64,000 bases of DNA from Candidatus Dadabacteria bacterium (GCA_963805855.1 CAWDVW010000007.1:128001-192000), one strand, 5' to 3'. Counted from the first letter of the stretch, positions 45,001 through 51,000 are shown. Program-made: the numbers.

Positions 45001-48000
45001 AGGGATATGCCTGGAAGGTTATCATGGACGAGCGTTATAGATATTGTGCGGATGTGGATCAAGATACGGTTATTGGTCCCGCCGGTAGGGAGTTCGGCAT
45101 AAAGAGCTATTTATCCATGCCTATTCTATACGAAGGTAAGACGATCGGAGTGATAAATGTAAATTCGCTCCAGAAAGATGCCTTTGATGAGGATGAGTTG
45201 AAACTCCTGGAAATAGTGAGGGAGCAAATCACGGTAGCATTAAATAATGCCAGACAAAAAGGAGCGCTGGAAGAGGCGCTTTCAGAGGTCGAAAGATTAA
45301 AAGATCGGCTGGTGGACGAAAGTGAAAATATACATGGTGGTTTTGAAAGCAGCCACATTTTTAAAGATGTGAAAGGCAAAAGCATGTCACTTCAAAGGTC
45401 TCTTTTTAAGGTTTACCAATATGCATCATCTGATTCAGTACTATTGATTCAAGGTGAAGTTGGTACTGGAAAGGAACTGATAGCTAGATCTGTTCATGAG
45501 ATTAGCCCGAGGAGGCAGAGACCGTTTATTAGCGTAAACTGTGAAGAATTGTCTAAAGAAGCAATTGAGCTGGAGCTATTCGGACACGAGGCAAGGGGTT
45601 CGGCTACGGGCGCGCTCTCCATTAGGATTGGTCGATTTGAAATGGCAAATAATGGAACTATCTATCTGGAGGAGATTGGCGCAATACCACTGGAATTACA
45701 GTACAGCTTAGCTAGGATCTTTCAGGAAGGGGTTTTTAGTAGATCTTCAAATAACCGTCTGATTAAGGTTAATGTAAGGGTTATAGCTTCATCAAAAACC
45801 GATGTGGGTGAGCTCTTCCAGGAGGGCAAACTCGGTGAAGAGCTATACAATCAAATAAATAGTTTTCAGGTCACCATTCCGCCCCTCCGTGATCGCAAAG
45901 AGGATATTCCACTGCTTTCGAAACATTTCATTGATAAACATGGATATAAGCTGGAGAAAAAAATAGATTCAATACCCCATGAAGTTGTCGAATATCTCCA
46001 AGCCCATGATTGGCCTGGAAACGTCAGTGAACTGGACAGATTACTAGAGCAGGCAATATATCGTTCGAAGGGAACAACCCTGGAATTGCATGATTTGGCT
46101 GACCTTATTGTGAAATAAGACACATAGAGAGAACGGGACAAATGAAGAGAAGTAAGGATAGTTTTAATCGGTCTTTGCTTGACGCTTTTGATAATTTTGC
46201 ATCGCGCAACTGCTTCAAGGTAAAAAGGGGCTTCGGGTATCGAGATTATAATTATATGCAAATTCAAGGGTTCGTTTTTCGAATTGCGCTATTTTTACAA
46301 TCTCTCCGACTCGGCAAGGGCGAGAGGATTGCGATTGTTGCTGAAAATTCCCCTGAGTGGCTGGCGGTATTTATTGCTACTATGTTTTCAGGTTGCGTCG
46401 CCGTACCTCTATCGACAAGCCTCCGCTCGGACATGTTTAGATTAATACTAAAAGACTCAGGAGCCAGGGTTGCCGTAATTCAAGATCAACGATATTACAA
46501 TGAAATTCGCAACCATGAAGGGGAACTGCCTGATTTGAAAACAATCATTCTTGTTAACGAGTCGGTTGAATCCATGTCCGAGGTTATCTTGCTTAATTCA
46601 ATTCTAGAACAGTCGATCGCTCATAAAGATACGGCCGAAATTCGTACATTGGCAGAAGGAATTGACCCAAATGATTTCGCCCTAATTTTGTATACCGCAA
46701 AGGAAACCGATAAGCCAATGGGGGCGGCATTTAACCATTTCCAGATGTATACATCATTAGAGAATATGTCAAAATGGTTAAATTTTGAAGAGGATGATAT
46801 GGGCTTTACACTTCTCAACTGGGGAAACCCCATAAGTCTAAAGGTATCACTTGATTACTTTCTATCTGGTGTCAACAATTCTTTGGCCGAGAGTATTGAC
46901 ACCGTGTTTGAGAATCTCCAGGAAACGAGTCCTACCTTTGTCCTGACAATTCCATTTGCACTCGAGAATATATACAACAAGGTCATAACTGAGTTTAGTA
47001 AGTTTCACGGTTCGCGTCAAAGCATTTTTCTCTGGGCTTTAGCCACTAGTAAGGAGTATCATTCTGCAGGTCTGACGGCATCAAATGAATTACGTGAACG
47101 TTACAGGCGTGCTGACATGACATTTTTTAGTCAGATCAGGGGGATGTTAGGGGGTAGACTTCGTCGGATTTATTTGGCGGGTGCAAGTATATCTGAAGAG
47201 TTGGTAGATTTCGCAGAGGCTATAGGATTGAAGGCCTTCAATTTATATCATGTCACCGAGTCTGGCGGATTTCCCGCTCTTTGTGCTTCTGATGCAAACC
47301 GTCCCGGAACCTGTGGACAGGTGGCACCTGGTTTCCAAATTCGTATTGCCGATGATAGCGAGGTTCTGGTCCGGGGTGAAACTGTAATGAAACAGTACTG
47401 GAAGAAGCCCGAAGAAACCTCTCAAACGATCGATTCTGATGGTTGGTTACATACAGGGGACCTAGGACGCTTCGATTCCGATGGTTTTCTATATTTAACT
47501 GGATATAAACAGTCAGTGATTAAGTTGTCAAAAGGGCTAAAGATAATGCCAGATACGGTTGAAAAGGTATTAACCTCAAATCCGTACATTTATCAGGCTG
47601 TGGTATTAGGAGAAGGGAGACCCTATGTCTCGGCCCTCATCGTGCCAAATTATGAAGCACTTGCGGCGCACCTGCGTGAACATGCAGAAGGAGAGGTTGG
47701 AACGCTTAACATGTATCACCCTGAAGTCCATTCCCTCTTAGACAAAGTGGTTGCCGAAATTAATAGCAAATTAGACCCTTGGGAGCGAATAGAGGCTTAT
47801 ACACTTCTAGATCAGCCCTTTTCCGGGGAGAAGGGTGAGCTAACACAGTCCATGAAGGTCAACCGTAATGTAATTGCAGAACGCTATTCTGTCCATACAG
47901 AGGCGATGTATCCGATGACAATTAGATTGGAAGAGAGTGCGGTAACTCAGGTGGAACTAGAGCCTGAGCATCTTCGTGAATTGTTAGAGAAGCAAGACAT

Positions 48001-51000
48001 TCTTGACGCATGGATAAAGGACGCCGGTATTGGCTTCTTGTTCGACCTTGCAAGGGCGAAGCAAATCGACATCACCTCAATGGTCCATATTTGTGATACT
48101 GTTTCAGCAATTGCACAGATGCAGAGCGAAGAAAAGCCACTGTCCACTGCATTAATAGTCGGGGATCCTTCCAGAGTTTCACATGTCTTACCGGAAAGCG
48201 AGATTCAACTTCAAAGGTATGATCATATTCGCCGGATGCGTCAGGTAGTGATTACGCTTGCTAAGGTGGTAGACGGCGTGTTGTTTGCCTACGGTGTGGA
48301 TAAACTTGGTTACGTGAGGAAGATACATAAGCTAGATAGAGAACTGGATCACCCTGCCAGTTTTCTTCTTGGACCACAGTTCAGTCATCACGCAGCCATC
48401 TCTGAAAAATGTGATGCGGTTGTGTTCTTTGTGCCTAAAGGCGGTAGACAGGTACGAGTATTTGCAAATGGCCAACTCGTAGGTCGATACACAGATGGAA
48501 ACTGGTATTCGGAGAGTACACCGTATTTGGAGGAATCTGTCGCTAGACTGGCTGAACAAAAACAGATCGATTTGAAATTGTTAACAAGGATACTACGCTG
48601 TGCATTCCAGATGTCGGAGGAGAATTTAGGTGCAATTATAGTCCTGGGAGACTCGGAGGTAATTTTAAAACGCTCCGACCCCCCGGGGATAGCCGCCTTT
48701 GCAAACCTCCTCAGCACTCCTATAGAAAAGATATCCGATCGCGAATTGATCAACTTTGCCAAGCAGGACGGAGCAACAATTATAGATACAAATCAGGGTC
48801 TATTCAGGGCATGTATGGTTCTACTTAGACCTGAAGCCAATACCAAGGCTGATGTTGGAATCGGTAAAGGTGCTCGTCACAGCAGTGCTGCTAAGATGAG
48901 CGCTGAAGCAAATTGCTTGGCGATCACGGTTTCACAGGATGGTCCTATTACTTTGTACGACGCCGGAAAGAGGATATTATCTTTATAGATGCGGTGCCGT
49001 TCGGAACTTTTCACGAGAAAACAGAGAATCTTTTGTATAAGGGTTAAGCGGACTATTGTCTAAGTCGCTAATGGCCTTTAGCTCGCCCAAGGGCTTCCAA
49101 TGTAATTTTGCACGGAACCCTACTTTCCTGTGCATCGTTAACGGAAAGACTTCTTGTTTAGGGACTGACATACCGCGGGAGGGTTATTTATTGTTTTTTT
49201 TAACCGATTATGTATAAACATACAGACTAAACTGTAAAAAAGTGTAAATACCTTTTGCTATCTGTAATAACTAAATATACAAAATGGCTCCATACCCGCT
49301 GGCCGGCGGGCGTTGTAGAAAAACTACCCCTTGTTAATGAGGATTATTCAACTAATATTCCTGGACTGTACGTTGTCGGTGATTTAACGGGAATCCCTCT
49401 TCTTAAGTTTTCTTCCGATAGTGGGGCCAAGGTTGTCAAGAATATTCTAGCAGGTGAGGATTTTAAACGACAGAAATCCGAAGAGAAAACGAAGGGGCTA
49501 GTGGATTTAGTAATCGTTGGAGCAGGGGTGTCGGGAATGGCATCGGCGTTAGAGGCAAGGAAAGCAGGATTGAGCTTTGAGATCCTTGAAGCAACCGAGC
49601 CCTTCTCGACTATAGTAAATTTCCCTAAGGGTAAACCTATTTATACCTACCCTAGAGATATGACCCCAGCCGGTGATCTCCAATTTTCCGCTACTGTAAA
49701 GGAACCTCTGGTAGATGAGCTTAAAGAACAGACACTTCGAAGGGGTATAGAGCCTCGAATTGCAAGGGTTGAAAGAGTCATACGAAGGGATGATTTTTTT
49801 GAGGTTGTTATACCTGACGGAGAAAACCTGCTTGCTAAAAGGGTAATCATTGGGATTGGGCGTTCGGGAAATTTCAGGAAGCTCGGTGTTCCGGGAGAGG
49901 ATCTGGATAAGGTTTTTAATCGTCTGCATGATCCAAAGGATTTTTGTGGCCAAAATGTGTTGGTGGTGGGAGGCGGCGATACTGCCTTAGAGACAGCAAT
50001 CGCATTAGCGCAGTGCGGTGGCTATGTATCGTTGTCTTACAGGAAGGATGAATTCTCAAGGCCCAAACCAGAAAACATAGAACGGCTTAACAAATTGATT
50101 TCAAATCCCATGGCTGCTGTTGGGGTCGAGACCCCAACGTCAGAGCGCGTAACGACGAGTACGGGTGCTTTTATCCCTTCGGATCATGCACCAGGAAAAA
50201 TCAAATTGCTGTTGAAGACTAAGGTAAAGAGCGTCACCGAAAATGAAGTGTCACTTGTAGATGCTGATGGAAAGGGAGTATCTATTCCAAATCAAGCGGT
50301 ATTTACAATGATAGGTCGTGAGGCTCCACTGGATTTTATTCGTCGCAGCGGCATTAAGATCAAAGGTGAGATTGGCGCAAAAGGTTGGGTTGGCTTAACT
50401 CTCTTTTTGCTTTTTGTCACGTTTGTCTACCATTGGAAATCGGGGGGCTATTTATCAAGGTTTTTTGAAACACATAATTGGTTTCCTTACAATGTGCCAG
50501 ATTTTATTTATGGCTTGGGTGCATTTGTCGCTGATAAGGCTGCCGATCCTTCTACCCTATTAGGTACTTTGACGATAAACCTTGAAGAACCCGGCTTTTA
50601 TTATAGTTTAATGTACACGTCACTCATTATTATTTTTGGTATACTCAGAATCAAGCGACGAAAAACCCCTTACGTGACGGTACAGACTGTGTCTCTAACG
50701 TTTTTCCAGGTACTTCCTCTATTTTTATTACCATACATAATTTTGCCGTACATGGGCCACAATGGATTGTTCGACTCTGGGGTATTGAAATCTGTGGCCG
50801 ACTCCCTCTTTCCCGAAGTCAACTATGAGCACGGACGAGAATATTGGAGGGCATTCGGTTTTATACTTGCCTGGCCACTATTCATCTGGAATGTCTTTAG
50901 CTATCAGCCCATGTGGGGTTGGTTGATCATTAGTCTGGTCCAGACTTTTGTAATCATCCCCCTATTGATTTATTTTTGGGGTAAGGGCGCATATTGTGGT

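Follow-up and report, generated by a model that had tools for sequence, protein, structure and literature searches.

Formation of cyclic di-AMP (c-di-AMP) requires that two ATP-loaded diadenylate cyclase (DAC) domains pair face to face, according to the available part of a published account (PMC10167629). In cyclases of the CdaG/CdaH type the DAC is preceded by a degenerate DAC-like domain, DACNH (PF21750), which was defined by Galperin 2023, according to a preprint that cites this survey (PMC13640721). The presence of DACNH in CdaG means that the combination of a dead DAC-like domain with a live DAC is, as a principle, already in print. A preliminary description of the gene reported here had allowed that the survey might list this very family; the citing preprint does contain the principle, in the form of the DACNH of CdaG, but that domain is not the one found here (see below).

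The gene lies in a 64,000-nucleotide stretch of DNA from a Candidatus Dadabacteria bacterium, called the window here (Table 1). It encodes a three-part protein, in which Pfam and our follow-up analyses delineate an ANL (AMP-binding) module, a middle domain and a C-terminal DAC; the ORF, its translation and Pfam agree on the 948-aa fusion of ANL and DAC that had been described before. A Pfam scan of the 948-aa protein returned no match for aa 600–820. With moderate confidence, we propose that the protein would be a signal-regulated c-di-AMP synthase composed of a live DAC, its dead twin and an ANL sensor.

Table 1. Features of the ANL-DAC locus (positions counted from the first letter of the window)
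Feature	Position	Strand	Basis
Upstream gene, 1118 aa, GAF-PAS-PAS-GAF-sigma54-interaction AAA+ with lid	42762..46118	+	Pfam
ANL-DAC gene as a whole (948 aa): ANL module, linker helix, degenerate DAC, DAC	46142..48988	+	ORF list, translation, Pfam, homologues
ANL N-terminal domain, aa 31-420, catalytic motifs decayed	46232..47401	+	Pfam AMP-binding E 3.6e-39
ANL C-terminal subdomain, aa 458-590	47513..47911	+	Pfam AMP-binding_C_3 E 4.5e-11
Conserved long linker helix, aa 608-628, from ANL to tandem DAC	47963..48025	+	Helix 9-29 of tandem model
Middle domain, aa ~630-792, predicted degenerate DAC fold	48029..48517	+	Lone model, Foldseek, VIA, hhalign, column counts
C-terminal DAC, aa ~793-948: DGA 876-878, RHS 912-914, S-Q-D 931-933	48518..48985	+	Pfam, VIA, motifs
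Stop codon of ANL-DAC gene	48986-48988	+	

Our searches revealed 304 homologous proteins at E<=1e-3, and 118 of the 120 homologues listed contain all three Pfam families, the remaining two being fragments of 532 and 534 aa. The 74 public loci contain 76 ORFs, of which 63 have at least 900 aa (median 957 aa). According to their record labels, these loci belong to Chloroflexota-type bacteria (48), Acidobacteriota (12), Dadabacteria (4), Thermodesulfobacteriota (3), Spirochaetia (2), Ignavibacteriales (1) and "Deltaproteobacteria" (1), with three unclassified. The counts bear out the more than 300 homologue clusters and the conserved architecture of about 950 aa in the preliminary description, and the three further DAC genes that it reported for this genome were counted again; their presence weighs against the synthase reading. 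Its figure of 2 in 41 phylum genomes was superseded, as the tandem module of middle domain and DAC is found in 14 of 120. The C-terminal half is better conserved than the ANL module (mean top-residue fraction 0.77–0.80 vs 0.61).

Sequence and fold both identify the C-terminal domain as a DAC. Pfam DAC (PF02457) matches aa 822–943 above the gathering score (E 1.4e-16, 60.6 bits, cut-off 27), and VIA aligned aa 792–948 with six DAC representatives, including CdaA, DisA, CdaM and DacM (Z 15.4, 15.3, 15.1, 14.8, 13.4 and 13.2; 124–140 residues aligned, rmsd 2.4–2.8). The change of RHR to RHS beside an intact DGA, noted earlier, proved to be a fixed trait: D876-G877-A878 and RHS are invariant in 28/28 and 71/71 aligned relatives, with R912-H913 unchanged and Ser at the third position in all 71, and so is D933 (71/71), an acidic residue at the position of the second Glu of the S-E-E site. 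RHS, which had been taken as a possible sign of another activity or of none, is not exceptional: of the three further DACs in this genome, two carry Ala and Met at this position (RHA and RHM), and the third residue is also variable in distant relatives. In the accessible part of PMC3328451, ATP binding and activity of M. tuberculosis DacA were abolished in a triple RHR to AAA mutant, which is the only dead RHR mutant documented there. Compared with CdaA, the domain shows Thr202 replaced by Ala, Glu223 by Gln, Arg205 by Ser and Tyr187 by Met, in an ungapped by-eye alignment to a CdaA-type protein of the same genome, read against the residue list in the available part of PMC10167629. These departures are counted against the synthase reading, as is the single-sequence query of the C-terminal domain, which retrieved no solved DAC at E<=1e-3. 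No measured activity could be found for members of this clade, which likewise counts against the synthase reading. The C-terminal DAC is the sole domain with a plausible catalytic site.

A model of the middle domain by itself (aa 625–795, 60-sequence alignment) reached pLDDT 87.4 and pTM 0.88. All 36 rows among the Foldseek matches listed for this model are diadenylate cyclases, and 19 matches have E<=1e-3. In a VIA-align search of 48,161 PDB representatives, only DACs reached Z>=8 (six chains: 13.0, 12.5, 11.5, 11.2, 11.0 and 9.7; 132–144 residues aligned); the next-best fold was BioW (Z 5.1 and 4.4), and all others stayed at or below 3.1. This search of the isolated fold had been missing from the preliminary description, and its idea of a second, degenerate DAC between ANL and DAC, forming an in-chain pair, is borne out by it as well as by profile comparison. 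Aligned by hhalign with the C-terminal DAC, the middle domain gave a weak match when only family members were used (E 0.0038, Neff 1.9), and one that runs end to end over 143 columns when distant relatives found by phmmer were added (Prob 95.3 %, E 2.2e-8). Pfam DAC covers model positions 7–118 of 119 below the gathering score (13 bits, E 0.08), and at E<=10 it matches 18 of 60 middle domains of the family (best E 0.0089). We assign the middle domain, on predicted structure and profiles, as a degenerate DAC homologue; it is probably a duplicated, catalytically dead DAC placed directly before the live one.

In the middle domain V-D-G is kept (D711 in 70/71, G712 in 71/71), with Leu, Val or Ile in place of the Ala of DGA; the RH pair has disappeared, and P-x-G-G stands in place of the acidic S-E-E metal site; in the ungapped register Q-F-R (Q-F-S here) falls on R-H-R, in the hhalign register it is (R/S)-H-H. 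The pseudo-active-site face (V710, D711, G712, P765, G767, G768, Q770 and R772) is kept in 68–71 of 71 relatives and is thus as conserved as the live one, a pattern more in keeping with binding than with service as a simple spacer. One may then imagine an asymmetric pseudo-dimer within the chain, with the dead DAC facing the live one and a different product. Such pairing of one dead and one live face could yield no more than one phosphodiester bond, that is a linear dinucleotide (pppApA or pApA), or AMP attached to the 3'-OH of a ligand held by the dead domain and possibly handed over by the ANL module. The prediction of the pair as one rigid unit (pTM 0.87), the atypical live site (RHS and S-Q-D) and the resemblance of the fold to adenylate-forming BioW (Z 4.4–5.3) would agree with this, but DGA and RH are the standard c-di-AMP motifs, modules fused to PAS/GAF or standing alone have no ANL to deliver a ligand, and we know of no DAC with a linear-dinucleotide or AMP-adduct product. 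We regard such a pseudo-dimer as unlikely, and an asymmetric in-chain pair whose one catalytic centre makes linear diadenylate, or an AMP adduct on an ANL-captured ligand, in place of c-di-AMP as slightly less likely still. If true, this widespread MAG-borne family would define a nucleotide signal not known before and put the DAC fold to a new use, with an input shared with a sigma54-type AAA+ sensor, as suggested by the gene-fusion variants.

The two DAC domains are predicted to form one rigid two-domain module (tandem model of 349 aa, pLDDT 89.9), and this module is portable. Versions with 70–72 % identity are found behind PAS_7-GAF-PAS in two variants of 785–787 aa (L049 and L050), while more distant ones follow zf-HC2 and Lon_C/ChlI-like domains or stand alone at 363–391 aa. 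In all scanned relatives with a DAC match (15 of 23 at E<=1e-3, plus P0160 and P0164) the DAC is C-terminal to the middle-like domain; in some distant relatives (P0150, P0154 and P0155) the second DAC also lacks the RH region. As PAS-GAF-PAS is an input module, the DAC pair is the sole possible output in fusions of the L049/L050 type, and we suggest that the tandem serves as the output part, to which different inputs can be joined. The region that joins it to the ANL module is itself well conserved (aa 600–640, mean top-residue fraction 0.785).

The "complete" ANL enzyme of the preliminary description is complete in fold, with the N- and C-terminal subdomains present (PF00501 and PF23562), but not in catalytic motifs, as all nine ANL markers are kept in only one of 112 family members. 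The A3 P-loop reads TAKETDKPMG and does not match T[ST]G[TA]T[GA]x[PS]KG (or T[ST]G[TS]TGxPKG); within the family G187 is kept in 41/112, G190 in 66/112 and Lys193 in 40/112. The A8 Arg (aa 455) is Tyr here and Arg in 57/112 relatives, and aa 458, the place of the hinge Asp, holds Ser here and Asp in 0/112. A7 Asp (111/112) and A5 Glu (105/112; E373 here) are retained. Lys572 of A10 is present in this protein and in 43/112 of the family, in a region where the alignment is uncertain; its retention here is counted against the synthase reading. As a control, nine of nine other ANLs of the same genome are canonical, with the P-loop Lys and A8 Arg intact. This pattern suggests that the module has lost most of the adenylation machinery and kept nucleotide-contacting residues, although motif decay does not prove loss of catalysis.

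Control might also run in the reverse direction, from a nucleotide-sensing DAC pair (binding ATP or c-di-AMP) to a working ANL acyl-CoA or acyl-adenylate synthetase. The complete ANL fold, A5 Glu, A7 Asp and, here, A10 Lys would be in keeping with this, as would the database name of the protein, long-chain acyl-CoA synthetase, and the connection of c-di-AMP with fatty-acid metabolism in mycobacteria. However, the ANL module is the less conserved half, most members lack the catalytic markers, and the DAC pair behind a PAS-GAF-PAS input can only be output; moreover, the best NCBIfam match, FadD11 (NF038343), scores 205.8 bits against a cut-off of 950, and NF004837 scores 186 against 476. We therefore judge reversed control improbable.

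Signalling genes make up the neighbourhood: an HTH-less sigma54-type AAA+ sensor, Ser/Thr kinases and response-regulator phosphatases. The AAA+ gene, in which Pfam detected no HTH, ends 23 nt before the start codon of the ANL-DAC gene, and in this gap (46119–46141) no terminator-like or promoter-like site was found; it is likely the operon partner. In 7 of 73 public loci the place directly upstream is taken by a gene of the same kind; the earlier statement that no neighbour is conserved is right in part only, as this sub-clade does have one. In L049 and L050 it is the PAS-GAF-PAS half of the AAA+ sensor that is joined in one chain with the tandem DAC module. No c-di-AMP riboswitch match was found in the genome itself (93.8 % complete), which is also counted against the synthase reading.

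With two of the three domains clearly degenerate and the third different from CdaA at several active-site positions, the whole protein could be a pseudoenzyme, a scaffold or receptor that binds nucleotides and partners, for instance the upstream AAA+ protein, and makes no product; loss of the RH region from the second DAC of P0150, P0154 and P0155 would fit. We find this quite improbable in view of DGA, RH and the acidic D933, which do not vary among the 71 members of the ANL family, and of the top-residue fraction of the C-terminal DAC, the highest in the protein (0.80), as expected from purifying selection on a catalytic site.

For the signal-regulated synthase that we prefer, we infer the following scheme. 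The C-terminal DAC would provide the output and the dead DAC directly ahead of it would be its partner, while the ANL module would serve as input, most likely by sensing a bound ligand, which would be a carboxylate or fatty acid, an acyl-adenylate, or ATP/AMP. The conserved linker helix would relay the state of the ANL module to the DAC pair, where the dead twin would either keep the live DAC off or position it. Because the dead twin could not supply the second ATP and two loaded DACs are needed, catalysis should require two chains, which would bring their C-terminal DACs together.

We also compared the middle domain with the DAC-associated domains defined previously. PF21750 gave no match at E<=10 in the genome itself or in any of 60 middle domains of the family, and hhalign against 113 DACNH regions of CdaG proteins yielded E 0.41 over 10 columns; the identity with DACNH was hence rejected, and by these profiles the two are distinct domains. 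A true DACNG-DACNH-DAC protein does occur in the same phylum (L110). DACNV (PF21751) matched 6 of 60 family middle domains weakly (best E 0.011), with an Atlas lead of 0.76, which is below threshold, and an hhalign E of 0.11 over 60 columns; an HMM of the middle domain matched none of 10 ORFs selected where DACNV had matched, although three of these ORFs may be wrong picks.

Thus, the protein shares with CdaG/CdaH, as described in the citing preprint, a putative dead DAC-like domain ahead of a live DAC, but its middle domain keeps D-G of DGA, and its N-terminal partner is an ANL module instead of DACNG. With CdaA/DacA, DisA and CdaM it has in common the fold of both domains (Z 13.2–15.4 for the C-terminal and 9.7–13.0 for the middle one) and, in the C-terminal DAC, DGA and R-H; it differs from them in having two predicted DAC folds per chain, no transmembrane, DisA-linker or HhH parts, and RHS and S-Q-D in place of RHR and S-E-E. 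FadD11/FACL-type ligases, the best NCBIfam match, have the same AMP-binding plus AMP-binding_C_3 architecture, but this family lacks conservation of the P-loop, A8 Arg, hinge Asp and A10 Lys, and its module is fused to a DAC pair. In pseudo-heterodimeric nucleotide cyclases and degenerate GGDEF/EAL domains, one duplicated copy is dead and regulatory; this likeness would be an analogy between different folds and chemistries, and since a DAC needs two loaded sites, the dead copy could not simply complement the other. Beyond the preliminary description, the analysis adds the portable two-DAC module, the decay of the ANL motifs and the conserved neighbour of the sub-clade.

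The gene for the ANL-DAC protein, in which an adenylating enzyme of the AMP-binding ANL superfamily is joined to a C-terminal diadenylate cyclase (DAC), is covered on the opposite strand by short, unsupported ORFs (124–133 aa). A Pfam scan of aa 600–820, between the ANL module and the core of the DAC, gave no match, and the top NCBIfam model for the protein, FadD11, scores 205.8 bits where its cut-off is 950. We collected 304 homologues at E<=1e-3; among the matches listed, the three Pfam families occur together in 118 of 120, with most lengths falling between 940 and 990 aa. 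Our scan of public loci, with one genome per species, yielded 74 loci with 76 ORFs, including 63 ORFs of at least 900 aa (median 957 aa). According to the record labels, these loci belong to Chloroflexota-type organisms (48), Acidobacteriota (12), Dadabacteria (4), Thermodesulfobacteriota (3), Spirochaetia (2), Ignavibacteriales (1) and "Deltaproteobacteria" (1), with three unclassified; the closest public record (L005, 91 % identity) bears the label Thermodesulfobacteriota. The tandem module, i.e. the middle domain followed by the DAC, occurs in 14 of 120 genomes of the phylum with a patchy distribution (5/14 in the family of the genome studied here, 8/33 in another). Alignment of 112 full-length members gave a mean top-residue fraction of 0.77–0.80 in the C-terminal half vs. 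0.61 in the ANL module. In three loci from MAGs of Anaerolineae and Caldilineaceae, two full-length paralogues lie head to tail with an overlap of about 50 nt (L008: 131–3073 and 3024–6023; L032: 4848–7733 and 7684–10713; L033: 3–779 and 730–3756), and they could be partners in hetero-oligomers; several MAGs carry three copies on separate contigs. A 160-aa "solo" DAC (L076:6028-6510) is 96 % identical to aa 780–948 of the full-length protein P0033, and some alignments between the two extend further upstream; we therefore rejected it as a separate architecture and regard it as probably a 5'-truncated remnant.

Features of the ANL-DAC gene and protein, of its upstream neighbour and of the related fusions, with the retention of ANL markers in the family
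Feature	Position	Strand	Remarks
Upstream gene	42762-46118	+	GAF-PAS-PAS-GAF-sigma54-interaction AAA+-lid, 1118 aa
ANL-DAC gene	46142-48988	+	one long ORF in the window, 948 aa
AMP-binding	aa 31-420		Pfam E 3.6e-39
AMP-binding_C_3	aa 458-590		Pfam E 4.5e-11
DAC	aa 822-943		Pfam E 1.4e-16
PAS-GAF-PAS + tandem DAC fusions	L049:384-2747, L050:3363-5720		GAF-AAA+ and ANL parts absent
P-loop Lys			retained in 40/112 family members; Arg in 53
G187			retained in 41/112 family members
G190			retained in 66/112 family members
ANL A5 Glu			retained in 105/112 family members
ANL A7 Asp			retained in 111/112 family members
ANL A8 Arg			retained in 57/112 family members
ANL hinge Asp			retained in 0/112 family members
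ANL A10 Lys			retained in 43/112 family members; A10 alignment less certain than elsewhere

The preliminary description had suggested, on weak evidence, that the middle stretch is a degenerate DAC, and this is borne out both by the fold of the domain alone and by a profile that includes its distant relatives. Comparison of family-only profiles of the middle domain and the C-terminal DAC was weak (hhalign E 0.0038, Neff 1.9), and a sequence-profile search of the PDB with the middle domain gave nothing significant (MgtE E 0.087, CdaM 0.55, one other 1.3); the C-terminal DAC itself, as a single-sequence query of the PDB, has no match at E<=1e-3. A model of the middle domain alone (aa 625–795, 60-sequence alignment, pLDDT 87.4, pTM 0.88) retrieved 19 matches at E<=1e-3 from the PDB with Foldseek, and all 36 rows listed are diadenylate cyclases (DisA, CdaA/DacA, CdaM/DacM). 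In a fold search independent of Foldseek (48,161 representatives), exactly six chains reached Z>=8 and all six are DACs (Z 13.0, 12.5, 11.5, 11.2, 11.0 and 9.7; 132–144 residues aligned), followed by BioW (Z 5.1 and 4.4) and everything else at or below 3.1. A phmmer search of 1.84 billion representatives identified 49 proteins at E<=1e-3, some of them at 24–37 % identity, and once distant relatives had been added (31 sequences, Neff 5.2), the widened profile aligned with that of the C-terminal DAC end to end (143 columns, Prob 95.3 %, E 2.2e-8); the match of the C-terminal DAC to that of CdaG proteins served as the positive control (E 8e-10). In the model of the tandem module (pLDDT 89.9, pTM 0.87) helices and strands run twice through an identical order. 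BioW (5tv5, 5flg) is the next-best fold after DACs for both DAC-like domains (Z 4.4–5.3; models of aa 625–795 and aa 600–948). It is an adenylate-forming pimeloyl-CoA synthetase whose fold does not belong to the ANL superfamily, and a search of the literature linking it with DisA returned nothing useful.

The two DAC-like domains differ in their motifs. In the C-terminal DAC, the DGA (876–878), R912-H913 and S931-Q-D933 motifs are invariant in 71 of 71 aligned sequences, and the third position of RHR is always Ser. We do not find this substitution alarming, because the three other DACs of the same genome have RHR, RHA and RHM, and distant relatives carry many different residues at this position. 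The two of these DACs that depart from the textbook RHR (L002 and L003) are a CdaA-like membrane protein of 402 aa, which has RHA and is extended far at its C-terminus, and a 204-aa soluble protein with RHM. The conservation of DGA, RH and D933 argues against the whole protein being a pure pseudoenzyme, an explanation we consider unlikely. The middle domain retains V710-D711-G712 in 70–71 of 71 sequences, followed by Leu, Val or Ile, and has P765-x-G767-G768 in place of S-E-E. The register of its RHR region is ambiguous: without gaps, Q-F-R (Q-F-S in the window protein) falls on R-H-R, as supported by the HMMER alignment to CdaM and by equal lengths of helix, loop and strand, while hhalign places (R/S)-H-H there with gaps. 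In either register the middle domain lacks the R-H pair or else its first Arg. The RHR->AAA mutation ends ATP binding and activity of M. tuberculosis DacA (PMC3328451); the middle domain can thus not form a normal ATP-loaded half-site.

The tandem module is not confined to ANL fusions. Two proteins, labelled Dadabacteria (L049, 787 aa) and Ignavibacteriales (L050, 785 aa), have PAS_7-GAF-PAS in place of the ANL module before a tandem module that is 70–72 % identical to aa 632–948 of the window protein, and 788-aa frames of this kind are present in two genomes of the same family as ours. We scanned 23 of the 49 phmmer matches for domains: a Pfam DAC was found in 15 and in every case follows the middle-like stretch on its C-terminal side; 12 contain a Lon_C or ChlI-like domain, often together with a zf-HC2 domain, which is an anti-sigma-type zinc finger; and four (363–391 aa) consist of the middle domain and DAC and nothing else. 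In one family of about 640–690 aa (P0135-P0170), zf-HC2 and a Lon_C/ChlI-like domain precede the pair of dead DAC and DAC; in P0150, P0154 and P0155 the RH region is gone from the second DAC as well. The unit of a dead and a live DAC is old and has been attached to several input modules at one junction, around aa 630, which is the strongest argument for taking the ANL module as an input and the DAC pair as an output.

The motifs of the ANL module are decayed, in agreement with such a role. The P-loop (A3) of the window protein reads TAKETDKPMG and its A8 Arg is replaced by Tyr, whereas in the nine other ANLs of the same genome the loop always conforms to T[ST]G[TA]T[GA]x[PS]KG, with the A8 Arg present in all nine and the A10 Lys in eight. 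Only one of 112 family members (P0120) retains all nine ANL markers. This pattern suggests that binding of a nucleotide or adenylate has been retained, while selection for fast adenylation is gone. It is also one of two observations, the other being the PAS/GAF form of the DAC pair, that speak against an active ANL tuned by a nucleotide-sensing DAC pair, which we regard as unlikely. The window contains a second ANL fusion with canonical motifs (60247–62820, + strand; AMP-binding, PP-binding and acyltransferase domains, 857 aa; L093) and a stand-alone ANL at about 19493–20590, and G000 contig C5 (~630–664 kb; L079-L085, L088, L094) carries a large NRPS-like cluster whose AMP-binding modules number at least nine, in open frames as long as 7177 aa.

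The statement in the preliminary description that the gene has no conserved neighbour needs to be corrected: in 7 of 73 loci (L005, L010, L016, L017 (partial), L022, L025 and L041) the gene is immediately preceded by a co-oriented AAA+ sensor gene of 888–1119 aa (gap -52 to 59 nt), and in 9 of 73 a Ser/Thr kinase gene adjoins on the same strand. Within 6 kb the counts are 13/73 and 15/73, respectively. The AAA+ proteins lack a DNA-binding HTH, the one in the window ending directly after the AAA+ lid; a shorter form (888–904 aa) is found in L010, L016, L022 and L041. The kinases, typical of the Chloroflexota loci, combine Pkinase with Toast_rack_N or with TPR_MalT and GerE. In the window, the 23-nt gap between the two genes (46119–46141) contains no terminator-like or promoter-like site, and matches to the sigma54 promoter consensus (3 vs. 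2.4 expected in the window) are uninformative. The N-terminal ~440–467 aa of L049 and L050 are colinear with, and 46–50 % identical to, the PAS-GAF-PAS N-terminus of the upstream AAA+ proteins, and the PAS/GAF form shares 73 % identity over 130 aa with aa 351–480 of the upstream protein in the window. Because of this colinearity the 785–787-aa form looks like a deletion fusion, which would have brought the sensor half of the upstream gene onto the DAC pair. Such a natural fusion, as read from the sequences, points to a functional tie between the AAA+ and ANL-DAC genes.

Parts of near-identical DNA are present in 20 runs from 15 studies of salt-marsh, mangrove, marsh and soil metagenomes, with 0–10 mismatches per piece in the contigs of one run (X1). 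A salt-marsh metatranscriptome (X20) contains four 151-nt contigs (0–3 mismatches, depth 2–3), three in the upstream AAA+ gene (44799–45295) and one in the ANL-DAC gene (47940–48090), but none bridging their junction; they are compatible with low expression, although DNA can occur in such libraries. Elsewhere in the window, an AddB-like gene (PD-(D/E)XK nuclease and ADDB_N, 1069 aa) is paired with a UvrD/AddA-like helicase-nuclease gene (1017 aa) at 33037–39334 (+), and a 445-aa ORF at 40758–42095 (+) matches no Pfam family at E<=1e-3.

From the observed list of parts we infer an activity, an oligomeric state and a direction of control, which together form a joint reading towards which we lean slightly. 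The C-terminal DAC would be the catalyst. According to PMC10167629, c-di-AMP formation requires that two DAC domains, both loaded with ATP, face each other, the two domains there being two chains; because one chain of the ANL-DAC protein would have one competent site, live domains from two chains would have to pair. The dead twin, which would pack against the live DAC as a single rigid unit, may block or position the live face, and the ANL module, upon binding a carboxylate or adenylate ligand, may act as a switch via the conserved helix of aa 608–628. Instead, the protein could be an asymmetric single-site enzyme with a product other than c-di-AMP, which we think unlikely. No c-di-AMP riboswitch (RF00379) was detected in the genome (93.8 % complete).

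To our knowledge, the regulation of c-di-AMP cyclases is largely unknown. Here the input domains of a DAC can be read, with an ANL-derived sensor suggesting that the signal is a carboxylate, a fatty acid or an adenylate, and the natural input swaps (PAS-GAF-PAS, zf-HC2/Lon_C-like) provide a ready comparative series. The fusion of an AAA+ sensor with the DAC pair is an argument that sigma54-type regulation is linked to c-di-AMP output in these organisms. Since the middle domain has no Pfam model, hundreds of these proteins are named merely "AMP-binding protein" or "long-chain acyl-CoA synthetase", so that what is probably a synthase of a second messenger goes unnoticed in Chloroflexota, Acidobacteriota, Dadabacteria and other groups.

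The cyclase CdaG has the architecture DACNG-DACNH-DAC, according to a 2026 preprint (PMC13640721) that cites Galperin 2023, so the principle of a dead DAC-like domain (DACNH) preceding a live DAC is already known. The middle domain is not DACNH: PF21750 matches neither the genome at E<=10 nor any of the 60 middle domains scanned, and comparison with DACNH regions from 113 homologues of CdaG gave hhalign E 0.41. Of the 120 phylum genomes, one encodes a true DACNG-DACNH-DAC protein, which is not related to the ANL-DAC protein in that region. A relationship to DACNV (PF21751) was a weak lead that was not borne out, in a comparison where 3 of 10 ORFs may be wrong picks. Our full-text searches retrieved no description of an ANL-DAC fusion or of a tandem DAC, although an ANL-DAC family may be listed among the 22 families or in the supplements of Galperin 2023. 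What is new here is a family of dead DAC domains, an ANL-derived input to a DAC, and the link, through gene fusion, to an AAA+ sensor of the sigma54 type. The middle domain is, after DACNH, a second and independent case in which a DAC has decayed and serves a live one as regulatory partner.
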